The position numbers were made by a program, and so were the translations under genes. A model generated the notes under the pieces. The model saw only the letters and a program-made list of their open reading frames with translations, did not search any database and was not told where the DNA came from. Of a stretch of DNA of 37,724 nucleotides, positions 464-37,273 are shown one piece after another (within the stretch, counting starts at the first letter, position 1; each line of letters begins with the position of its first letter). Origin of the DNA: a virus (lineage: Duplodnaviria > Heunggongvirae > Uroviricota > Caudoviricetes); the IMG/VR virus record IMGVR_UViG_3300030055_000004; one strand, 5' to 3'.

Positions 464-745
464 ATGATTTATTTTTTTAAATTTAATATTAATAAACAAG
501 GCTCTTTACAATTTGCAAATATAATATTAATGGGCTAGTCTAAGTTTAACTTATACGTACCAAACTAATCGTTAAAATATTCAAATTTCTGCAAGTCTTA
601 ATACATCAGAGTGAATTTAATCCGTTAAATGTATTCAGGGCTGTAATGTGACACCTACTTGTTTATCTAATAAAAATTACTCCTTCTTATTTCATTAGTA
701 TCAGCATTGCTAGGGACTAATAATAATAAGAGAAGCAAATTTAAG

Positions 746-812
746 CGAGTATTAGGGAATCGAACCCTATCTCCCCTCTTCGGAGTGCCCTAACCAATTA
801 GACGAGTTACTC
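746..812 (-). tRNA. Degenerate tRNA-like element, anticodon not assignable
   Basis: Reverse complement GAGTAAC TC GTCT AATTGGTTA GGGC A CTCCGAAGAGGGGAGA TAGGG TTCGATT CCCTA ATACTC G: good D-arm and T-arm, shortened anticodon and variable region. Confidence 0.6.
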
Positions 813-896
813 TACTTACAATGATCAGTCGTAAGTGCAGGATGAAAGTCGACTTTCTTACCCTATACAGAATCACACTTAAGTAAGTTCTGTGTT

Positions 897-968
897 GTTC
901 TCCACACAGGATTCGAACCTGAATTTTTATTGCTTTACAATAATGTCCTACCATTAGACGAAAGAGAT
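897..968 (-). tRNA. Degenerate tRNA-like element with aberrant anticodon loop
   Basis: Reverse complement ATCTCTT TC GTCT AATGGTA GGAC A TTATTG TAAAG CAATAA AAAT TCAGG TTCGAAT CCTGT GTGGAGAAC: D-arm and T-arm present, 6-bp stem with 5-nt loop in place of a normal anticodon arm, imperfect acceptor stem. Confidence 0.6.
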
Positions 969-1581
969 AAGTATTGGTGGTAAAAGTCCTCTTTAGACTT
1001 ATTTTCAACAGAGTGTATTCTGTGACCACGAGAATCAATGATTCCAATACTAATTAATTTGAATGTTCATGATTACTCATCAACATCGACGAAAACTCAC
1101 ATAATATCCATTGACATTATACAAATTCTATCGTACAATTATATCTTACTCATATAATTTTCTGTTTATACCAAGAGTAAGTTGGTATTTATCAGAATTA
1201 CCTTTATAAAGGTTTTTATTAATCCATTCTTGGTTCGCATGTAGGATATTACATACCGACGACTCTAGCTTTAAAACATTTACGTCTATACATTATTTCC
1301 ATAAAAAGCTAATGCAACAATGGCACCGTTTAAAATTGAAATAATGTCTTTTTCTTTTTTCTTCTACACGAAGAGTGTATACCGACTCCAACGTTAATAC
1401 TACCGCTGTAGTATTATGGAGTGACGTGTTGACAGAACAACTGGCATTGGATACTATGCTATTAATTAATTGAAGAGCTGCCTTTATCAGTTCGATTACA
1501 TTGATGAGTAATTGCCTTTGGTATTTTATTGTGATAAATCACGCAATATATCTCAATTCTTTACAGTTTCAATTAATTCAT

Positions 1582-6802: not shown

Positions 6803-7097
6803 AATAAGTTTTTTTATTTGTTTATATTTAGTGAACAGAGGACGAATTTTCTACGAATTCATTTTACTCTCCTTAAGGCTTGGGGGAGTAAAGACCAACA
6901 GCTCTCACCTGTAAAAAATATATATAAAATTTTTTTTCAATCTCCTTAGCAAATCAATCTATAATCATCTTAAGGGGGGCACTAAAATTCCTAACTAAAA
7001 TTATACATATATAAAAAATTTTTTATTTTTCTTGAGGAAATTTCGAAGAAAATTCCTAGTAAGTATAATTATATAAGTATAAGTAAGTATAGTTAGA

Positions 7098-7155
7098 GGG
7101 TACTTTTTGCACGCATCGGGGTACATTTTGCACACCCTTGGGGTATTTTTTGCAC
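7098..7155. repeat. Three 15-bp direct repeats (iteron-like), putative replication origin
   Basis: GGGTACTTTTTGCAC (7098), GGGTACATTTTGCAC (7119), GGGTATTTTTTGCAC (7141); 21-22 bp period; adjacent AT-rich AAGTA repeats. Confidence 0.75.
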
Positions 7156-7222
7156 AACCTCTATGCAAAAACTTTCACTATGAAAATTAAAGTATTAAAA
7201 TATGTTAAATTTACACTATTTA

Positions 7223-7254
7223 TTTGCACTATCCAAAAAATTTTATTACCTTTG
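7223..7254 (+). promoter_or_regulatory. Bacteroidota primary-sigma promoter (-33/-7)
   Basis: TTTG (7223-7226), 20-nt spacer, TACCTTTG (7247-7254), upstream of ATG 7279. Confidence 0.75.
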
Positions 7255-7278
7255 TATTAGAAATTAAAGTAATAGAAA

Positions 7279-8025: not shown

Positions 8026-8298
8026 ATGTTATACTTAATAAAATTAGATTAAACTTACAAAATAGGTTTCTCAGAAAATATAGAAAAAAGATTCAAGCAA
8101 TTTGAGTCAACTCATATTAATGTAGAGATAATAGCTTTAAGAGAAGGTGGAATAAGGGAAGAAAAAATTTTACAAAAAGTTTGTAATGCATATCATTTAA
8201 AAAATAAATTATTTGAAATAAATGAATGTATAGTAAATATTTTTAAAACTTATATATTAAAGTGTAATAATATAGATATTCCAGAAGATTTAAATTAG
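8026..8298 (+). pseudogene. T5orf172/GIY-YIG-like endonuclease pseudogene
   Basis: MLYLIKLD*TYKIGFSENIEKRFKQF...EEKILQ; in-frame TAA at 8050-8052. Confidence 0.65.
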
Positions 8299-12285: not shown

Positions 12286-12357
12286 ACCTTTGTAGTGTAA
12301 TGGTAGCACGCAAATCTTCAAAATTTGTAAGTCAGGGTTCGAGTCCTTGGGAGGGTG
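12286..12357 (+). tRNA. Opal-suppressor tRNA-Trp(UCA)
   Basis: ACCTTTG TA GTGT AATGGTA GCAC G CAAAT CT-TCA-AA ATTTG TAAGT CAGGG TTCGAGT CCTTG GGAGGGT G; anticodon TCA 12318-12320; A1-U72 and G73 as in bacterial tRNA-Trp; CCA not encoded. Confidence 0.92.
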
Positions 12358-12375
12358 CAAATAATATATGATAAT

Positions 12376-12948: not shown

Positions 12949-13127
12949 TGACAGAATTAGAAACTAAAATAATTGAAGCAAGAAAAGATGGATTAAGTTA
13001 TGGAAGTATTCAATTACGATTAGGTAATCCATCCAAAAAATTTATAAAAGAAGTTCTATTAAAATATGAACCAACACTTCTAGGAGATGTAGTTAAGAAC
13101 TATAATAAATTATATCATAAGTATTAA
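12948..13127 (+). CDS. Small HTH-like protein (59 aa, MTELETKIIEARKDGLSYGSIQLRLG...)
   Basis: Manual translation, TAATG-coupled to the HNH gene. Confidence 0.55.
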   Translation: MTELETKIIEARKDGLSYGSIQLRLGNPSKKFIKEVLLKYEPTLLGDVVKNYNKLYHKY

Positions 13128-13492
13128 AAAAGAAAGGATTTAAAATACATCAATTAGTAGCAATAGCTTTTTTAAATCATATTCCTTGTGGTTATGATGT
13201 AGTTGTAAATCACATAGATGGAAATAGAAAAAATAATAATGTTGAAAATTTAGAATTAATAACTTCAGCAGAGAATGTAGTAGATGGGTTATTAAGAAAT
13301 AATACTAAACCTATTGAAATAAAAAATAATATTAAATACATTTCTCCAAAACAATTTGAAGCTTATTATACTTATAATGAGGAACAAATTTTAATTGGAT
13401 CTTTTGAATCCATTAAAGAATGTACTATTGTTATTGAATCAGTAAACAAAATAGTTAATATAATTAAAACAAAAAATCCTGTATCAAATTAA
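13121..13492 (+). pseudogene. 5'-truncated HNH homing endonuclease remnant
   Basis: Start-less frame: KIHQLVAIAFLNH...VVNHIDGNRKNNNVENLELITSAEN. Confidence 0.7.
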
Positions 13493-19672: not shown

Positions 19673-21133
19673 ATGATAATGACAATGAATGTATTATTTG
19701 ATGACAATGCAAAGACTCCACTTATAACAGGAGTGAAATTAATAGGGGATGCAGTAGCAACAACTTTTGGACCTAATGGCAAAAACGTTATAATTAAAAA
19801 TAGAACTGGTATTCATGTTACAAAAGATGGGGCAACAGTTGCTAAGTATGTAAATCACAATGATCCTGCTGTTAGTATGGGTATAGATGTAATAAAAGAT
19901 ATTGCAGTTAAAACTGCTAAAGATGTTGGAGATGGTACAACTACTGCAACTATATTAGCTAGAGAAATTGTTTTAAGTTTATCTAAATCTACTAAACATC
20001 CAATAGAAATATTAAGAATATTGACAGATGATTTAAAAAAGGTAACAGAATATTTAGATAAAAATAAAATAGAAATAAGTACACAAGAAGATTTACTTAA
20101 AGTGGCAACACTTTCTGCTAATAACGATCCTATTCTAGGACAGTTAATCTCTGATACTTATTATAAAGTTGGAAAAGATGGCAGTGTAAATATGGAAGAA
20201 TCTTCAGATATAAATAATTCAGTTGTTTTTTCTGATGGTTTACAAATTGATTCAGGTTTTAGTTCCCCATATTTTATTAATACAGATAAAAATACATGTG
20301 AATTAAATAATGTATTAGTTGCTATTTTTAATGAAAAATTAGTAGAATTAAAACAAGTAATTGATATTTGTAATCAAGCTATTGATGAAAAAAAAGAATT
20401 ATTAATTATAGCTCCAGATATTGCATCTAATATTCTTAGAATGTTATTATTAAATAAAGGTAGTAAGTTAGAATCTTGTACTGTTATATCCCCAGGAAAT
20501 GGAATATATAGAGATACATTATTAGAAGATATTAAAGTAACATTAGGACAAACAATGACTTGTAATAAAGTAATTGTAACTAAAGACACAACAACATTCA
20601 TCGGTTGTATAATAGATGAAACAATAAAACAAAATAAAGTAGAGTCTATTAGATCTTTATTATCTGGTAATGGATTAAGTGAATTTGAAATGCTATTCCA
20701 TAAAAAGAGATTAGCTAATTATTATGGTGGTGTTGCTACTATATTAGTTGGAGGTTATTCTAAAGTAGAAGTTTTAGAAAAGAAAGATAGAGTTGAAGAT
20801 GCTATTGCTGCTGTTAAAGCTGCTTTAGATGGTGGAGTTCTCCCAGGTGGAGGAGTTGCATTACTTCATGCAGCAAGAGATTTGGATTTAGTATTGTTAG
20901 ATAAAATTATTCAAGTACCATTTAATATATTATGGAAAAGTGCTTGTTCTCCTGAAATTTCTCTTAAAGAAGAATTTTGGAATGGATATGATTTTAAAAA
21001 TATAGTAAATGGTAATATGTATGAGATGGGAATTATTGATCCGTTCTTAGTTACAAAGACCGCTTTAGAGAATGCAGTTACAGCAGCATCTTTAATTCTA
21101 ACAAATGGCTGTTCAATAATAAATATGGATTAA
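19673..21133 (+). CDS. groEL: Phage chaperonin GroEL-like
   Basis: TFGPNGKNV, VTKDGATVA, VGDGTTTAT, EKKDRVEDA, GVLPGGG, GIIDP. Confidence 0.95.
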   Translation: MIMTMNVLFDDNAKTPLITGVKLIGDAVATTFGPNGKNVIIKNRTGIHVTKDGATVAKYVNHNDPAVSMGIDVIKDIAVKTAKDVGDGTTTATILAREIVLSLSKSTKHPIEILRILTDDLKKVTEYLDKNKIEISTQEDLLKVATLSANNDPILGQLISDTYYKVGKDGSVNMEESSDINNSVVFSDGLQIDSGFSSPYFINTDKNTCELNNVLVAIFNEKLVELKQVIDICNQAIDEKKELLIIAPDIASNILRMLLLNKGSKLESCTVISPGNGIYRDTLLEDIKVTLGQTMTCNKVIVTKDTTTFIGCIIDETIKQNKVESIRSLLSGNGLSEFEMLFHKKRLANYYGGVATILVGGYSKVEVLEKKDRVEDAIAAVKAALDGGVLPGGGVALLHAARDLDLVLLDKIIQVPFNILWKSACSPEISLKEEFWNGYDFKNIVNGNMYEMGIIDPFLVTKTALENAVTAASLILTNGCSIINMD

Positions 21134-23077: not shown

Positions 23078-23659
23078 ATGCTAAAATTATTTTCTTATGA
23101 TAATATGAAGAAGGAAGTAGTTATTAATGAAGCGGACGTCCTTTTAATTAAGGAGTTCGCTGATTTATGAACTAATGAAAGAAATGAAACTAAAAAAGAT
23201 CCTACGGGTAAAAATAAAACTAAAGCATTTAGAGAATTTACTTATATATATTGTGCTATTGATTGGAGTTCTCCATATGCTAAATATTCGGAACAAGAAA
23301 GGCACGAAGAAGCTTTAAGAGACGGTGGTTTAGAACAAGAAGAATTTGATGATGAAGTATTCAGATGTGCTTGTAGAAAATACAAACTAATTCAAGAAAC
23401 TTCTAAGATTGGTAAATTATTACAATCACAAAAAAATATGGTAGATAGAATGACTATCTATTTTGATAATCTTGATTTTGATGAAAGAGATACTGTAACA
23501 GGTAAACCTATATTTAGAATGAAAGATGTTCTTGATGAAATGTCAAAAACTGGAAAAGCTTTAGAAAATATAGAAATATTAGAAGAATCTTATAAAAAAG
23601 AACAAGAAAAAGAAAGTTCACTTAGAGGTGGTCGCATCGGAGGACGATTTGATTCATAA
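23078..23659 (+). CDS. Conserved pre-terminase protein, 193 aa (TGA=Trp; small terminase candidate)
   Basis: MLKLFSYD...LLIKEFADL[W]...AFREFTYIY..IDWSSPY; TGA at 23168; function by position only. Confidence 0.75.
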
Positions 23660-23661
23660 TT

Positions 23662-26016
23662 ATGGCTACTAAAAAAGAATTAGAAATAGCTGCAAAAGCT
23701 GCAAAAAAAACAATAGTTATAGGAAAAAAAGAAGTAGAAAAAAAGAATTTTGAGAAACAACTCAAAATAATTGAAGCAACTATCCCTACTATTATAGAAG
23801 AAGAGGAAGTTAATGAAGTAAAAATAATTAAAACTAAAGCTCAATTAGAAGTTGAGGAAATTGAATTACTTCGAGAACAATTAGAACTGGATAAGAAAAA
23901 AGAAAAACTTAGACGTAATAAAAATGAATGAGATGTAAAATTAGGTGAACCAATTGTATTTTTTGATCCTGAATTATCTTATGAACTTACAGGTTATAGA
24001 CCTATTACAATGACTAAAGGTTTGGATTTTGTATCAGCACCTTTTACAGAAGCTGGTAGAATCTATGATGAAACTGGAAAATATAGTACATTTAGAGAAG
24101 GTTCTAAATTATATGATGAATTCTGGGATACTCAAATGGAGAGATGTAAAGATGGATATACTGTTGGAAAATATACAATAACTGGAGATAATTATTTCTG
24201 GTTAAATTTTTATAGATTACTTAATGTAACTAATATTCAAAAAGCTGCAGAAGGTCGCCTTGAAACATTCCCAGATTTCTTTTCTAAACAATATGAATAT
24301 TTTCATTATATAGATCTTTGTGAAAAATCTGGATTTGATGTTGGATCATTAAAAGCACGTGGTGTTGGTTTTTCAGAAATTGCTGCATCTTTAGGAGTAC
24401 GAGTTTATACTACAGTTGCTAAATCAAGATGTTTATATGCTGCTGCTGCTGAGGGATTTGTAAGAGATGTACTTGATAAAGCTTGGTTACAATTAGAGTT
24501 TCTAAATACTGAAACACAAGGTGGTTTTGAACATGTTAGAATGAAGAAAGATTCAGACATGAAAAAACGTGCTTCTAAAGTAACTACAGAAGGGACTGAA
24601 TTTGGTTGGATGGCTACTTTAGAAGGTAAAGTTGTAGATAAACCTCGTAAATTACGTGGTGGACGTTTAGAACGTTTGTTCCTTGAAGAAGCTGGATCTA
24701 ATCCTATATTAGTAACTTCTTATAATCAATCTGAAGCCTTAGTAAATATTTTAGGTAAACGTATTGGTTCAAGATTTGTTTGGGGTACAGGTGGTGATGA
24801 AGGACCTCAATTAGCAGGTTTAGCTGGTATGTTTTATAATCCTAGTGAATATAATATGTTACCATATTACCATAATCATACTGAAAATGGTCAATATGTA
24901 TATACAGGATTTTTTATTCCAGCATATACAATGCATATTCCTTCATGTGATTCACGTGGAGTTTGTAATGAAATAGATGCTAAAATTTATTATAATTCTA
25001 TAAGAGTTAAAAAATCATCTAATGCAAAAAACTTACTTGAATATAAATCAGAGTATTGTTTTACACCAGAAGAAGCACTTATTAGACAAGGGGATAATAG
25101 ATTTGATACTGAGTTATTAGCTGAACAAATTGCTAATATTGAATTACATAAAACAGTTGAACTTCCTAAAATGGCTAAATTAAATTGAGAATTTAGTAAA
25201 GAAATAGGTGGAGCTAATAGACAAAAAGCACCCTCTCTTGAATACACTGATAAAGGTTTAATTACTATAGTTGAAGAACCTTGAACAGATGAAAATAATA
25301 TACCTTATAATAATTTATATGTAGCTGGTATTGACTCTATTGATAGTGATGAAACTTCATCTACAGGTCAAAAAGATGTATCATCATTTTGTATTGTAAT
25401 TAAACGTAGACAATTTGGATTAAAAGATCCTAAATATGTAGCTATGTATAAGTATCGTCCTAAAGATGTACGTGATGCATATGATACTGCAATGAAACTT
25501 TTAATGTATTACAATTGTAAAGCAGTAATTGAAACTTCTCGTGTATCTTTAATAACACATTTTAAAACTGAAAAAAAATTAAATTTACTTTTTTTACGAC
25601 CTCGTGCAACAACAAGTGATGTAAATAAAGCAAATACTAGAATGTATGGTTGTTCTGCAACTGTACCAAATATTAATCATTATCTTGATTTAGTTGAAAA
25701 CTATGTTAGTGATTATTGTCATGAAATAACTATTCTTGATATGTTAAATGAATTAATTAAGTATTCTTTTTTAAATAAAAGAAAATTTGATATTGTAGCA
25801 GCAATGGGAATGTGTGAATTAGCAGATGAAGAATTAATGGGAAATGCTCCAAGATCATCTACAAAAGTCAATAAAGAATGGCAAGATATTGGTTATTATA
25901 CTGATGAAAATGGTTATAAACAATTTGGAGTTATTCCTAAAGTTTTACCACAACATAATCCAAATTTTACTCAACCTAATTATTCTTGAATGAACAATGA
26001 CAACACTAGAAACTAA
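23662..26016 (+). CDS. terL: Terminase large subunit, 784 aa (4 TGA=Trp)
   Basis: One frame through TGAs 23929, 25186, 25282, 25987; LKARGVGFSE (Walker A), LFLEEAG (Walker B), YVAGIDSID nuclease motif lying between the track fragments. Confidence 0.93.
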
Positions 26017-27016
26017 AATATTTGATTTTATAGAAGACAGTTATGATGCTAAATTTCTAGGAAAAGTTAAAGTAGATATTACAGGTGAAGATAAAGTAAT
26101 TACTACTACAACAACAACTGATGTTGTTACTAGTACTAATCAAGGTATTAAATATGGTAGACTTTATAATTGATATGCTATAACTGATCCAAGAGAAATT
26201 GCACCAATAGGATGGCATGTACCGACAACTGAAGAATGAGGTACTCTTATTAATTACATAGGTGCTACTCCAGAATCTTTAGGCAAACTTAAGGAAACTG
26301 GCACTACCTATTGATCTGACCCTAATATAAATGCTACAAATGAAACTGGTTTTAGTGCATTGCCTGGTGGATATCTTACTATATCTAATTATAATAATCC
26401 AAATTATCCAGATAGTGCTAATTTCTATAATTTAGGAGAAAGTGGTTTCTGATGGAGTTCTTCAAAGTATGATAAACTAAATGCATGATATATATCTATA
26501 CATAATATTATTAATTCTAATAATATACCTAGAAATAATTCTGATATACAAACAGGTTTGTCTGTACGTCTTATTAAAAATACTTCTATAAATGAAGGAG
26601 ATATAATAATAGATGGAGATACTTATAATACAGTAACTATTGGAGATCAAATTTGATTAAAACAAAATTTAGCAACATTACATTATAGAAATGGAGATTT
26701 AATTGGCACTAATACTATGAATAGGACTGAATCTGTTAGTACTTATGTTAATGATGAATCAAATGTTTACAAAATTATAACTACTACAACTCCAGTTACA
26801 ACTACAACTACAACTATAATACCTGTATTAAAAGAATATTGCTTATTAATTACTTTAAGTAATTATATGATACCATTGCCAATTTGTATACAATGTTTAA
26901 GTGATAATGATTTTTTTACATATATATGTAAAGAATTAAATACCAGGAATTTTCCTGTAGTAAAATATTTTAAATTAATAAAAAACGATACTAACGATGA
27001 TAAAGACATTATTTAA
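25997..27016 (+). CDS. Protein with inserted FISUMP (Fib_succ_major) domain, 339 aa (6 TGA=Trp)
   Basis: YGRLYN[W]YA...APIGWHVPTTEE[W]...ATNETGFSALPGG...GF[W]WSS...GLSVRLIK, between poly-Thr linkers. Confidence 0.85.
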
Positions 27017-29213
27017 AAATAGTGATGATAAAAATAGCGATGATTATTTAATTGCTCATTGTGATACAGCTATTGCTGAATTAGTGTTTGATAAAGTTTC
27101 ACTAGTAAAAGCATTTAATTATTATCATGGTGTAAGAGATAGATTTCAATTTGCACATTTAGAACATAATTATGGAATTGGTAATCCGACTTCTATTGAA
27201 TTTATTCCGCTTGTAAGAAAACATATTGATGCACTTGTAGGAGAATATCTAGCTACAAATATTACACCTAAAATATCTTGTAAAGATAAAGGAACTTTAA
27301 CTAATATGTTTAGAGATAAACAATTGGCTATTTCTGGTAATATAGCTAAATTAATTAAAACACATTTAACTAATTCTATGTTTTCTGCACTTAAAGGAGA
27401 TAATTCTGGAAAAACAATGGATAGTGATATTGCGAAACAATTACAAGAAATTTCTGATTCAACAGATAGAAATTTTATTTCAGAATATGAGATTGCCGCT
27501 CAAAATATTATTCAATATTTAATGAATTCTCGAGATGTAGATTTCAAAAATAAAATGAAAGACCTAATAATTGACCTACTGATAGCAGGTGAGACTTATT
27601 TTAAAGTCATTCCTACTACTGGAGGTACAAATATTAATATTGAAATTGAAAATCCTTTAAACACATTTGTTGATAGAGATTTTAAATCAGCCTATATGAA
27701 GAAAGGTTATCGCAGTGTAGTTAGAAAATGAATGACAAAATCTGAAATATTAGTTAAATATGGAGATAAACTTTCTAAAGATGATATTAAAGAATTAGAT
27801 ACTATTAAACCTGAATACAGTTCTAATAATTTAATGTTAATAAATGCTGTTAATTCTAGAACTGGGGCATTATTAACTGATGGTATTATGGCAGGAGTAG
27901 AAGCAACTCCAATGTATAATCAATACTCAACAGGAAATTTAAAATTATTACCTGTATTTGAAACAGAATGAATTGATACAGATATAGTAAAAGGACAAAA
28001 ACCCCTTGAAAATAGATATGAAGTTATAAGAATAGGTGCATCTATGTATATTTTAAATGGAAAAGATGAAGATGTAGTTAGAAGTATTGATACTCCTAAT
28101 GAATGTAATTTATCTGTTAATGGATTATATTATACTGACAGAACAGGTACACCATATTCTTTAATGTTAGCAACTGCTAATTTACAAGATAAATATGATA
28201 TTTTACATTTTTTCAAAGATAATGCTATTGCAACTAGTGGAAGTATGGGAAGTCATGTAGATGTTGCACATTTACCAGAATTTTTAGGAGCAACTATGCC
28301 AGAAAGATTAGTTAAATATTTAGCTTATAAAAAATCAGGTATTGCACCATTTGATTCTTCACAAGAAGGGCAAGTTATAAATCAAACTTTTGCAGGATAT
28401 GATGATACTATTAAAGTAACAACTATTCAAGCTATTGATATGGCTATACAAAGAATAGAAGAAACTGCTTCATCAATTACTGGTGTATTTAGAGAACGTC
28501 TAGGAGGTATTCAACAAAGAGATGCTGTACAGAATGTAGAAATGGGTATGCAAATGTCTTATGTTATTACTAAACAGTATTATCAAGGAATGGATACACT
28601 TGTAAGAGAGATGTTAACTGATTCTTTAAATGTTGCTAAAAAAGTATTTAAAAAAGGTATTACGGGATCTACTATATTAGGAGATAATAGAAGACAATTA
28701 TTTACTGCTTTACCAGAACATTATACTGTTACAGATTTTGATGTACATATAATTGATAGTGCTACTGTAATTAAAGAACAAGAGTTAATTAAACAAATTG
28801 CAATGGAACTTACTAAAGGTGGTCAATTTGATCCTGAAATGCTAGTAATTATTTCTACATCAAGAAGTTTAACTGAAATGAAAGAAAATGTTTTAGCAAC
28901 TCTTAAATCTAAAAAAGAAGAAAATAATCAATTACAACAAATGAATCAAGCTTTACAACAAGCTCAACAAGCTCAAGAACAAGCACAAAAAGAACTACAA
29001 ACTGCCACTACAAAATTAAATGGATATAGTGATGCAGAAATGCAATTGAAAAAACAAGAATTACTACAAAAAGGAAATCTTGAAAATAGACAAATGGATA
29101 TCAATAGTGATTATAATACTAATAAACTTTTATGAGAACAAAAACGTGTTCAATTAGAAGGTGTGCAATTATTTGATCAAAGTAATAAAAACGATAAAGT
29201 GAGGGAAGATTAA
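26997..29213 (+). CDS. Portal protein, 738 aa (3 TGA=Trp)
   Basis: One frame through TGAs 27729, 27969, 29133; follows TerL; FIPLVRKHIDALVGE, SITGVFRERLG, C-terminal Q-rich coiled coil. Confidence 0.85.
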
Positions 29214-31067: not shown

Positions 31068-34000
31068 ATGGAACAAAATATATTACTAGATAGTACAGAA
31101 TCAATTACTTCTGAAGAATTAATAAGTACACCTACTATACAAAAAAATATAGTAGAAAATAATATATTACTTAGTGATATAGACTCTAATACTTTTATAA
31201 TAAAACCTATTATAAAAAGTGATGTAATTAATACTAATCTTTTACTTAATGAACAAACTTTAAATACTATTACATTAAATCCAGTAGAAAGTCATAAAAA
31301 TATTATACAATCTAGTATATTAATTAATAATTTAGAAACAACAATTAGTTCTATTATTCCAATTAAAGATGTAGATAATGTACCAGTGAAAGAAAATATA
31401 TTATTAAATCAAATTGAAATACCTGTACATGATAATCTTATAACAACTTCAAGACCACTCAATACAGATTCAATAAACAATGATGATTTAATTTCTGGAT
31501 ATGAAAATACATTTATTCCTTCAGTTAATTTGACAGATGGTAATTATTTTCCATCTGACCCAGAACAATTACCAAGGATAACATCTTTAGAAGAATTATT
31601 AAAATATTTATCAGAAATAATGATAAGATTTAGTACTTCTCCTGATTATTATCAACAAGATGATTTTGCAATATTTATAAAAACTATTACTAATGCATTA
31701 ATTGATTTATATCTTAGAACTCCTGTTTCAGATGGTGAATTACAAAGTTTACTAAATTTATTATATACTAAAGTTGATAAGATTGAAGGTAAAGAATTAA
31801 GTACTAATGATCTTACAAATGAATTAAAAGAATTATATGATTTAGCTTATAGTCAAACTCATACTCATGATAATAAATATGCATTAGATTTAGTTGAAGG
31901 TTCAAATAAAGGGGATCAAGATTTAAGTAATTTAGTAACTAAAGATGAATTACCAGTAATACCTTCTTTAGATGGATATGCTACAGAATTATTTGTTACA
32001 AATATAACAGATACTAAAGAAGATAAAGGAGTTGCACAAATATTAATTACTGATTTACATTTAGGAGAAATAATTACTCATAATTCAAATGAGTTTGCTT
32101 TAATACTTACAGAAGATGAAAATTATGTTACAGATATTGAAAAAGTAAATCTTCATAATCCTCATTCTGATGATCAAGATCTAAGTGGATTAGTAGTTAA
32201 AGTTGAAGGAAAATCTCTTATATTAAATACTGAAATAGAAAGGTTAACTACTTTACACAATGTAGATATTAGTGGAAAAGTTGATAAAGTTGAAGGTAAA
32301 AGTTTAATACTTGATAGTGAGATAACTAGATTAACTTCAGTTTATAATGTTGACATAACTGGAAAAGTAGATAAAGTTGATGGGAAATCTTTAGTATTAG
32401 ATACTGAAATAGCAAAAATACATTCGTTACATGCTGATGATCAGGATTTAACTCCATATCAATTATTATCAGAAAAAGGTATTAATAATGGATACACTCC
32501 ATTAGATTCTGGCGGTAAAGTTGCATTACAATATTTACCATCAACATTATTAAAATATATAGGAACATGAGATATTATTAATAATGATCCTATTTTAATA
32601 TCACCTGATTTAACTAAAGTTAGTAATGTATATACAATAGTTGGCACTGGTACTAGATTTGGTATTAATTTCAAACCAGGAGATTGGTTAATATATAATT
32701 CAGATGGTATACCAGAAAAATCTGATAATTCAGATGATGTAACTATGGTAAATGGACAAACAGGTATAGTAACTATTACTAAATCTGATGTAGGTTTATC
32801 TTTAGTAGATAATACTACTGATTTAAATAAACCAATATCTAATGATACACAATTAGCATTAAATTTAAAAGTTGATAAAGTAATTGGAAGTAGATTAATA
32901 ACAACTGCTGAATCAGTTATATTAGGAAATACATCAAATATAAATACTGGTGATCAAACTTTAACTAGTTTAGGTGCACAAGCAGAACTTAGTGGTCATG
33001 GCTATGTTCGATTCATTGGAAAACTAGCAATATATGATGAATCATTATTTTCTAATACTATTGGAAATTACAATACTGCATTGGGTTATCAATCATTGTA
33101 TGCCAATACAATTGGTAGTGGTAATTTAGCCATAGGCTATCAAGCAATGTTCAAAAACATTGATGGTGGAACTAACTTAGCCTTTGGCAATTTGTCATTA
33201 TTCAATAACTTATCAGGTACAAATAATTTTGCAATAGGTAATAATACATTATATGCTAATACAATTGGTACAGATAATTTTGCATTAGGTAATTATGCAT
33301 TGTACAATAATACTGATGGTATATCTAATATAGCTATCGGTACTAGTGCATTAGGTGTAAGTACATCTACAATTGGAAATACTGCAATTGGTACTAATTC
33401 AATGTCTAATGCTACTTTCGGTAGTCATAATACTGCAATTGGAGCTATGAGTTTAATTGCAAATACAACAGGGACATCTAATGTATCAATCGGATATCAA
33501 AGTCTTTATACTAATACAGAAGGTAGTTATAATGTTGGTATAGGAGATACAGTGTTAAACAATAATGTTTTGGGTGGCTATAACATTGCATTAGGTGATA
33601 TGGCAGCCTCTTACTGTGATAATGGTGTAAATCTTCTTACTAACATTGATCATTCAATTTTTATAGGTGGTCTAACTGAAGCATTACATAATAACAGTAC
33701 AAATGAAATTGTTATAGGTTACACAGCAAAAGGTTCAGGTTCAAATACAATAACATTAGGTAATAATGATGTACTAAAAACAATGTTACGTGGTGACATT
33801 TATGTAAATGGTGTTCTATTATCTACTCTGTACAGTTCAATTGCAAATGCTTTTCCTGGGTTTGGTACTACACATGTATTATCAGCTTATGGTGATCATT
33901 TACATACTGGTGTATACCAACCAGTAGGAAATTATTTGACATCATTTACTGAGACTGATCCAGTATTTACTGCATGGGATAAAAGTACAGGCATAACTAT

Positions 34001-36236
34001 AACTAAATCACAAATAACTGATTTTCCGACTATTCCATCTTCACAAGTTCAAACAGATTGGAATGCTACATCTGGAATAGGAGTATTACTAAATAAACCT
34101 ACTCAGTTATCCCAATTTACAAATAATTTAGGTAATTACGGTAATTGGATAACAGGCATTAGTAGTGGAATGGTAACTACCGCATTAGGTTATACGCCCT
34201 ATAATTCAACTAATCCATCAGGTTATATTAATTCTCTTTTAGGTGCAGTATTAACAGATCAATCCACCCAACAAATAATAGGGTCAAGTGCAAGTCGATT
34301 GGGTAAATTGTGGGGTAGTGATGTTGATGTATCGGGAAATATAAAGATAAATGCTTCCGCTCCATTTATAAATATGTACTCGACTTTATGGAGTACGTCA
34401 ACATTTATTCAAACAGGGGTTAATGTAGGAGCTACTGATGGTGGTGATTATTTTAATATCTATAATCCAGCAGGAAAGGGATTTTCATATACGAGAGGTG
34501 GAGTAGTTGACTTATCTATTAGCCCATCAGGAATAGTAAACTTTTTAAATACCCCAACTATTGCAGGAGTGTCTTTAGATTCTAAGTATATCCAAAACAA
34601 CCCATCATCTGTTCAAAGTGGTAGTGTGTGGGTGGATGGAAGGATAATAGGCAATCGAATAGATAATTACGACCCCACCTTAACAGCTGGCGATGATATA
34701 GCATATTCAATAGGCAAACAATTCGGGAGTGGAACTTCTGGGTTTCTTGGTTGGAGAAACAACTCAGGAGTACCTTATATGTATATTGAGACATACGGAG
34801 GAGTAACTCCAATCAGTATTTTTGGTAGCAATTTTAATGTCAACGCATTAGGAGCAGCAGTCTTTACATCAACAGTTACAGCAACTCAATTTAATGCCAA
34901 TAATTTTATTGTTGCAGCTTCATATCTTGGTGATTCAAAATTATATTTAGGAGGAATTCCAGATATTTCTTGGGGTTATACTATAGATACTTTATCAAGT
35001 GGTTTAAATTTTAAATCAACAAACGGTGCATCTAAATCAATTAAATTTGATGATAGTGGGAATATAAACACAGATGGAACAGTTACAGCAACTCAATTTA
35101 ATGGTAGTGGTGCTGGTTTAACAGGAACTGCTAGTAGTTTATCAGTTAATTATGCTAATAGTGCAGGAAGTATTTCAAATTTCACTGTAAGAATTGATAG
35201 GTCAGATAGTAATGTTTATAACTTAGCTGGTAGAGGAACTGGTATATATGCAATTTCAGATTATGGTGGTGATGGTCCTGGTGCAATGTATTTAAATTTG
35301 TTACATATGACAAATGGTGGTGATGTTGCATTTCAGATTGCTGGTGGATACACAAGTGATAATATGTATTTTAGAGGTACAAGTAATTTAGCTGGTGGGG
35401 ATAGTTATACACCATGGAGAACTGTAATACATAGTGGAAATATTGGTAGTCAGTCAGTAAACAACGCTAGTTACTCCAATAACGTTATTATGCATGCTAA
35501 TAGAACAGATGGAGCATTTTATCAGGTACTATGGGGTACCGATAGTAATGTAAGTTCAATGTATTCTTGTGCAGGTGTTCAAATTCAATCTAGCACTGGA
35601 ACAATCAAAGCAACAGTTTTTTCAACAGGTTATATTCAAATTGTTGAAAAGCAAATTAATGAACCCGCTACGAATGCCACCTCTGCTATTGCCTACAACT
35701 ACACTGGTTATGCAGGCGGGACTACCCAGTTCAGAAACTTTGACGTATTTAATGGTAAAATGGAACACATAGTAACTTTCAGAGGAGAAGATTTAGCTAC
35801 AATTTATTATGGTCCTGGATATTTTAATCAAGGTGATGATAGTACTGGTGGTAGTTCAGGAGCACTTCAAGTATCTGGAGGTATTTATGCATCTGGTAAA
35901 TGTTGGATTGATTCCACTCTTCATGTTGATGCTGATACATTTATAGCTGGCATTATAACAGCAACTAATTTTATAATGCCATCTGATATTAAACTTAAAA
36001 CTAACATAACACCTATCACTAAAGATTATTCTAATATTCAATTTAAAGAATATGAATTCAAAAATAAACTTGGTGAAAAAAGATATGGTGCTATTGCACA
36101 AGAGTTATTAGAATCAGGTAATGATGAATTCGTATCAGGTAATGAAGAAATAGGATATTCTGTAAAGTATATAGATTTACTTATTGCAAAAATATCTAAT
36201 CTAGAAACTAGAATTAAACAATTAGAAAATAATTAA
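31068..36236 (+). CDS. Tail fibre / receptor-binding protein with C-terminal S74-type intramolecular chaperone, 1722 aa (1 TGA=Trp)
   Basis: Joined at TGA 32568 (KYIGT[W]D...GDWLIY); KVDKVEGKSL repeats; 14-aa NTxGxxNxAxG beta-roll repeats; SDIKLKTNI...YGAIAQEL...coiled coil. Confidence 0.88.
34871..35103 (+). repeat. 26-bp exact direct repeat inside the tail fibre gene
   Basis: AACAGTTACAGCAACTCAATTTAATG at 34871-34896 and 35078-35103 (TVTATQFN). Confidence 0.85.
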
Positions 36237-37123: not shown

Positions 37124-37273
37124 ATTTTACTTATCTATATTATATAAATATTTATTGTATAAATTAATACATTTTAAATTTAAAATAAATCTAATTTCAT
37201 TTATTTTTTACTCAAAAATGTATTAATTTTGTACATAAATAAAAATATGAACTAATATGAAAAAATAAAAATT

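Follow-up and report, generated by a model that had tools for sequence, protein, structure and literature searches.

A probable mosaic of structured RNA modules with tRNA-like folds in an ORF-free gap of a crAss-related phage

The early arm of this phage genome is packed with genes, with the exception of about 1.1 kb at positions 488-1578, for which a preliminary description made from the letters alone proposed one giant ornate RNA with embedded tRNA-like domains, belonging to the class of GOLLD and ROOL or to a new one. The question raised by this locus, hereafter the island, is whether it encodes a single large RNA, the remains of a tRNA array or several RNAs lying side by side. The window, that is, the whole stretch of 37,724 nucleotides analysed here (IMG/VR record IMGVR_UViG_3300030055_000004), places the island on the minus strand of the early arm. 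It lies between a 93-aa hypothetical gene coding for an orphan protein (1582-1863, minus), which sets its 5' boundary, and two downstream genes, a small one for a putative 36-aa lipoprotein with a lipobox-like LMSC motif (353-463, minus) and a 320-aa hypothetical gene of which the 5' part is included (1-356, minus). None of the ten proteins encoded near the island, that of the downstream gene included, has a Pfam match over the cut-off.

The source phage, also assembled as a 168-kb contig, is crAss-related: its terminase is around 30% identical to those of named crAss phages and 45-58% to those of IMG/VR phages of up to ~190 kb. It probably belongs to the Zeta group within the crAss-like phages, an assignment drawn from general traits and not from a tree, since the size, the recoding and the many tRNAs of its relatives fit that group (PMC7886860, PMC12386605); the 20 related records mostly carry 16-34 tRNAs each. 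TGA read-through is needed to obtain full-length late genes (frames of 796 aa for TerL, 743 for the portal and 1722 for the tail protein). This recoding of TGA to Trp covers the late and structural genes at 13553-36768 (TerL 23626-26016, portal 26982-29213, tail 31068-36236), and the early arm requires none. As context, a tRNA with a UCA anticodon, probably an opal suppressor (Trp), is present at 12286-12358 (plus), and a suppressor tRNA occupies a similar position after the rep gene in two relatives (L112 and L115).

Some other features of the window deserve mention. The gene arms diverge at 6810-7275, upstream of a DnaD-like rep gene, where short repeated G/T-rich motifs and hairpins mark a candidate replication origin. 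The stretch at 8026-8260 is ORF-free by start-codon listing and resembles by eye a T5orf172/MUG113-like remnant; in another relative (L141) the same position after rep is taken by an intact PF10544 gene. A frame at 13121-13492, which has no start codon and overlaps a 59-aa ORF where that ORF ends, carries an HNH_3 endonuclease domain (E 1.7e-10) and probably represents a homing endonuclease gene disrupted by breakage or a frameshift. The phage also encodes a GroEL-like chaperonin (19673-21133; PHROG 5725, E 3e-99). Finally, two regions outside the island fold strongly: a tail-gene tile at 32127-33217 (z ~-9, from 12 shuffles only), possibly on account of internal repeats, and an intergenic gap at 37140-37250 with a very long AT-rich hairpin of ~45 bp (tile z -8), which is possibly a late promoter, a processing site or a DNA cruciform.

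The island does not appear to code for protein, in agreement with what was first described, whether it is read under code 11, with TGA as Trp or with TAG as Gln. Only two start-to-stop frames of at least 45 aa touch 488-1578, both opening on TTG: a 48-aa frame at 353-499, of which the real ATG start lies at 463, outside the island, and an 85-aa frame at 790-1047 that traverses both tRNA-like folds. Small ORFs under recoding were considered and dropped, as the TGA=W and TAG=Q frames are not credible. The same gap is left uncalled by gene callers in four other assemblies (L105, L106, L138 and L151; 0-1 differences from the window), so that the island is not an assembly artefact. These strain variants are near-clonal, hence uninformative for conservation.

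The helices listed in the preliminary description are present, with the minus strand giving the best reading. The pairing of 1578-1568 with 1474-1464 (P 0.97) is the 11-bp closing helix of a 5' domain (1464-1578, minus) with a weakly folded interior (z -1.8), and that of 492-500 with 658-666 closes a domain here called E. Also present are the hairpin 1422-1385 (P 0.97-0.99; z -4.4 to -5.7) and the junction 1051-970 (P 0.96). A long rod rich in A and T, with a U run behind it (674-741, minus; z -6.0 for 738-677), is possibly a terminator or an RNase III-type processing stem; no intrinsic terminator was called inside 488-1578. Compared with dinucleotide shuffles the whole region folds better (minus strand, z -3.9 to -4.1), but five adjacent 1091-nt tiles full of genes are nearly as low (z -2.4 to -3.3), which makes folding energy alone weak evidence and the picture of a region tiled almost end to end with helices an overstatement: pairs with P>0.5 hold 47% of bases, against 31-50% in controls. 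For pairs with P>0.9 the fraction is 0.27, more than in any other of the 17 tiles compared. The folding signal comes from the rod, from 1051-1260 (z -4.2) and from the hairpin at 1386-1421; taken singly, 488-670, 742-970 and 1464-1578 reach z values no better than ~-1 to -2. The possible long-range 12-bp pair (1072-1083 with 1501-1512) exists but lies within chance, since a pair of this kind turns up in 7.5% of shuffles and 5 of the other 33 real tiles, and is covered by no diverged homologue. A 14-nt end-to-end pair consists of A and T only and is broken by a SNP in one strain (L104). Perfect palindromes are not enriched across the island.

Direct searches for diverged relatives of the island were negative. 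No homologue was found by blastn of the island and of the L139 and L140 segments (see below) against the phage collection, and contigs from viruses, metagenomes and genomes scanned for DNA patterns gave nothing or chance matches; the pattern used for domain E matched the short L139 spacing only. Covariance models of the conserved hairpin module called A and of the D6+T1 segment, both described below, retrieved ordinary tRNAs only (49 IMG/VR relatives; 788 kb of tRNA arms), and the modelled modules are absent beside distant orthologues of the rep and 116-aa genes (L109-L117, L141, L142 and L152). As these searches failed, synteny was used instead. Orthologues of the 320-aa gene (44-46% identity) led to two 2-kb contigs, L139 and L140, with ~600 nt available upstream of the gene in each. 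L139 is cut at its 5' end, and modules missing from either contig may lie elsewhere in the respective genomes. Each module has one diverged homologue, so that covariation can be judged between two sequences only, and these sequences also served in part to derive the structures.

L140 keeps a 290-nt cassette at ~70% identity, matching 769-1029 of the window and beyond, in which a multibranch domain (D6), a first tRNA-like fold (T1), three hairpins and a second tRNA-like fold (T2) follow one another in the same order. The strongest covariation is found in T2 (745-812, minus) and the spacer hairpin H2: all 26 pairs are kept in an ungapped MAFFT alignment, nine of them through double changes, a level reached in 2 of 500 shuffles, with 0-2 in slid controls. 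The anticodon arm of T2 is short, with 4 bp and a 5-nt loop in both phages; its D and T arms are 18 nt apart, against 22-25 in canonical class I tRNAs, and its acceptor and T stem together make up ~11 positions, mismatches among them. In T1 (897-968, minus), the only Rfam match in the window even at E<=10 (a marginal tRNA, 30.3 bits), the anticodon arm is aberrant, with a loop of 5 nt in the window and 8 nt in L140, and the acceptor stem is imperfect or broken in the window, where L140 has 8 bp and a T stem of 4. The D6 domain (970-1051, minus) has a core three-way junction (977-1029) with 13 of 13 pairs kept and one double change. D6 and T1 together keep 93% of cells with three double changes, which 57 of 500 shuffles equal, so that this segment is not significant alone. 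The spacer (813-896, minus) carries palindromes in its hairpins H2 and H3: GUCGAC of H2 becomes GUUAAC in L140, the two being offset by one alignment column, and the H3 loop palindrome UGAUCA is invariant. On this pairwise sequence evidence, the cassette is shown to be maintained as a folded RNA.

Both T1 and T2 retain the tRNA elbow in both phages, with a D-loop GG, a T-loop UUCRA and paired arms. Neither has the canonical anticodon arm, a 7-nt loop with U33 on a stem of 5 bp, and neither encodes CCA, which many phage tRNAs also lack. Decoding by T1 or T2 is unlikely because of their non-canonical or variable anticodon loops together with the missing CCA, and conserved elbow bases combined with variable anticodon loops are what one would expect if shape were selected and decoding were not. 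Neither Rfam nor ARAGORN with default settings detected T2, and look-alikes with a short anticodon arm score at or below the standard tRNA thresholds. The type recurs, with single copies of such look-alikes in three distant relatives (G009, G011 and G012). Truncated-anticodon-arm look-alikes were also seen in distant relatives at L132:16050-16270, preceded by ~150 nt of hairpins, L128:4770-4850 and L163:9215-9295, and others with 6-nt loops in L121 and L127.

The other relative, L139, keeps a different part of the island. Module A (1357-1474, minus) consists of four hairpins, one of them with a bulged stem of 15 bp capped by an AGCG loop; its match (1359-1473) is 93% identical, against 68% and 85% for the flanking genes, and the L139 frames over it gained a stop codon or show solely non-synonymous changes. 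With one double change and one broken pair among 28, a result equalled by 242 of 500 shuffles, its pairing gives no significant covariation. Domain E (492-666, minus), a closing helix with ordered conserved blocks, is present in L139 in a minimal form of 89 nt, which shares the closing helix and several of the blocks in their order and aligns with a global score of 37.6 (1000 shuffles: mean -1.7, sd 5.9, maximum 25). A and E follow each other in the order of the window, ~200 nt apart, and the tRNA-like cassette was not found between them. The minimal E stands in front of the counterpart of the lipoprotein gene, and in both phages E is preceded by a TAnnTTTG box of Bacteroidetes type, which is weak evidence. 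Neither A nor E is present in L140 from the upstream gene to the 306-aa gene, and the lipoprotein gene is missing as well, so that E and this gene co-occur. The pairwise comparisons thus show that A and E are conserved in a relative other than that of the cassette, and that the modules occur without one another. No diverged homologue covers the rod, which is absent from L140, most of 1475-1578 within the 5' domain, or 1052-1356 (minus), a row of ~8 AT-rich hairpins seen in this phage only, with no significant match in L139 or L140. At the same locus, L139:133-290, closed by a 12-bp helix, and L140:130-300 are relative-specific non-coding segments with no significant match to the window, and are candidates for further modules.

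What is supported is a non-coding RNA that is structured, under selection and equipped with tRNA-like domains. We consider its architecture to be probably that of a modular island, favoured because L139 and L140 each keep a different subset of modules. Given this architecture, a role of the tRNA-like RNAs as decoys or ligands is quite conceivable, though we hold it somewhat short of an even prospect. The full reading, that of separately inherited structured RNAs including a tandem tRNA-elbow mimic, probably processed and serving as a decoy or ligand, is one to which we give about even chances. The island would be transcribed together with the early arm. Cleavage by RNase P and trimming of the 3' end are established steps of tRNA biology, and host RNase P and 3'-end nucleases could in this way excise the cloverleaves and yield stable tRNA-shaped RNAs. 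These would act by shape on proteins that recognise the elbow or the acceptor, such as tRNA-targeting defence nucleases or sensors, or modification enzymes, a defence decoy being the most plausible. The cloverleaves may double as processing signals that free their neighbours D6 and the spacer, the palindromic hairpins of which might, more speculatively, dimerise the cassette. A and E could be further small RNAs or leaders.

The main competitor is a single large RNA of a new class, with A (plus the 5' domain) and E as conserved ends and the cassette and hairpins as variable inserts of a linker; its palindromic loops would drive assembly into homo-multimers. A and E do flank the cassette, and L139, where they stand in order at a short distance, is well explained by a single RNA with a variable linker. 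The high share of confident pairs in the island fits this reading, as do the switch of the H2 palindrome beside an invariant H3, reminiscent of the kissing loops of GOLLD and OLE (10.1101/2024.12.08.627333), and the possible presence of a pseudo-tRNA inside GOLLD (PMC6582537). However, the L140 cassette stands without A or E and so must work alone, E tracks the lipoprotein gene, and no cross-module helix lends it support, the 12-bp pair being at chance level and the 14-nt pair AT-only and broken by the SNP. The offset of the H2 palindromes, the lack of palindrome enrichment, the modest folding excess and the lack of an Rfam match count against it too, and we regard it as possible but rather unlikely. 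Its more elaborate version, an ornate class of ~1 kb in which A/E ends hold an exchangeable non-decoding tRNA-mimic cassette and which self-assembles through kissing loops into an anti-defence scaffold of elbow decoys, is unlikely.

That A, E or the cassette are mainly cis-acting leaders (riboswitch- or attenuator-like, or processing signals) of the lipoprotein and 320-aa genes is suggested by the structured RNA lying directly upstream of the same gene in all three loci, by the restriction of E to loci with the lipoprotein gene and by the L140 cassette, which directly precedes the gene, T2 ending ~30 nt before the start codon. Different modules occupy this position in different relatives, though, no riboswitch of Rfam matches at E<=10 and no competing fold that would mask the start codon emerged, so that such leaders seem a decidedly unlikely explanation of the island. 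A decaying tRNA array, with T1 and T2 as pseudogenes and the hairpins as terminators or processing leftovers, has in its favour the ORF-free gaps of 600-1600 nt packed with tRNAs in relatives, the damaged T1 acceptor, D arms resembling those of phage tRNA-Glu and tRNA-Asp, and neighbouring tiles that fold nearly as well. The covariation of T2 nevertheless contradicts neutral decay, the same shortened arm being kept in both phages, and module A is more conserved than both genes beside it; for T2 and A this explanation is largely refuted, and for the island as a whole it is improbable. A self-cleaving ribozyme (theta/HDV-like or hammerhead) or an intron tied to the tRNA-like folds is highly improbable. 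Theta ribozymes do follow tRNAs in recoded gut phages (PMC10879173) and Zeta phages are rich in introns (PMC7886860), but searching the window, L139 and L140 with a home-made descriptor, used without a positive control, turned up neither HDV-like nested double pseudoknots nor a CUGANGA core. Rfam gave no ribozyme or intron match, and the island interrupts no gene.

Should the cassette prove to be a tRNA mimic that is under selection and does not decode, RNAs acting by shape and not in translation would be part of phage tRNA islands, which bears on why phages keep tRNA-like genes and on how tRNA-targeting defences are countered. With modules A, D6 and E, three RNA motifs absent from the catalogues are added. 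The locus also calls for caution, since a long, ORF-free and helix-rich gap in a phage genome can be a mosaic and is not necessarily one giant RNA.

Several known systems were compared with the island. The proposal of a structured RNA with tRNA-like domains outside any Rfam family stood; membership in GOLLD or ROOL did not, as neither covariance model matches. GOLLD is a single transcript of 400-800 nt or more that forms a homo-multimeric cage. The island resembles it (RF02032) in being phage-encoded and long, in its tRNA-island setting and in containing tRNA-like folds, a trait paralleled by the linker of GOLLD, which may hold a tRNA or pseudo-tRNA (PMC6582537). Its spacer palindromes, judged here from sequence alone, recall the self-complementary kissing loops with switching palindromes reported in GOLLD and OLE (10.1101/2024.12.08.627333). 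The 3' domain of GOLLD is, however, conserved in all its members, whereas E is shared with L139 and absent from the L140 locus, and the island modules are inherited separately. Neither the window nor L139 or L140 matches the GOLLD model, whether at gathering threshold or at E<=10, and a search of relatives that lacked a positive control was empty. For ROOL (RF03087), likewise a large structured phage RNA near tRNA islands, no match was obtained at E<=10 in the same three sequences, nor in any of 24 relatives (again without a positive control). The island has no demonstrated pseudoknot network, and we know of no description of ROOL as containing tRNA-like folds. tmRNA, which has a split tRNA-like domain around a tag ORF, was rejected, as none was called in the island by ARAGORN or Rfam and both folds are contiguous cloverleaves. 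Resemblances seen by eye to RNase P, group I introns, cobalamin riboswitches and 6S RNA were dropped for want of Rfam support, as were a DGR template repeat, the window having no self-match, and a CRISPR-like array, no repeats being present. Like theta ribozymes, the island belongs to a recoded phage and has conserved structure immediately 3' of its tRNA-like folds, but no HDV topology was found in it, the spacer being made of three simple hairpins.

The tRNA islands and pseudo-tRNAs of Zeta crAss phages offer a closer setting, with tRNA-derived folds and an opal suppressor in the same arm (PMC7886860, PMC12386605). The arms of T1 and T2 differ in being shortened or aberrant yet maintained, and in being joined to conserved non-tRNA domains; no such cassette was found in the literature searched. 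YrlA-type Y RNAs mimic tRNA through their D and T arms and do not decode; in these a T-to-D-arm stem takes the place of an acceptor stem, and Ro60/Rsr is encoded next to the RNA gene (PMC4201824). In contrast, the arms of T1 and T2 follow the canonical order of D, anticodon and T, and no Ro60/Rsr (TROVE)-like gene occurs among the ten nearby proteins. By the tests run, the island belongs to none of GOLLD, ROOL, YrlA, tmRNA and theta ribozymes; it resembles GOLLD in context and YrlA in its tRNA mimicry.
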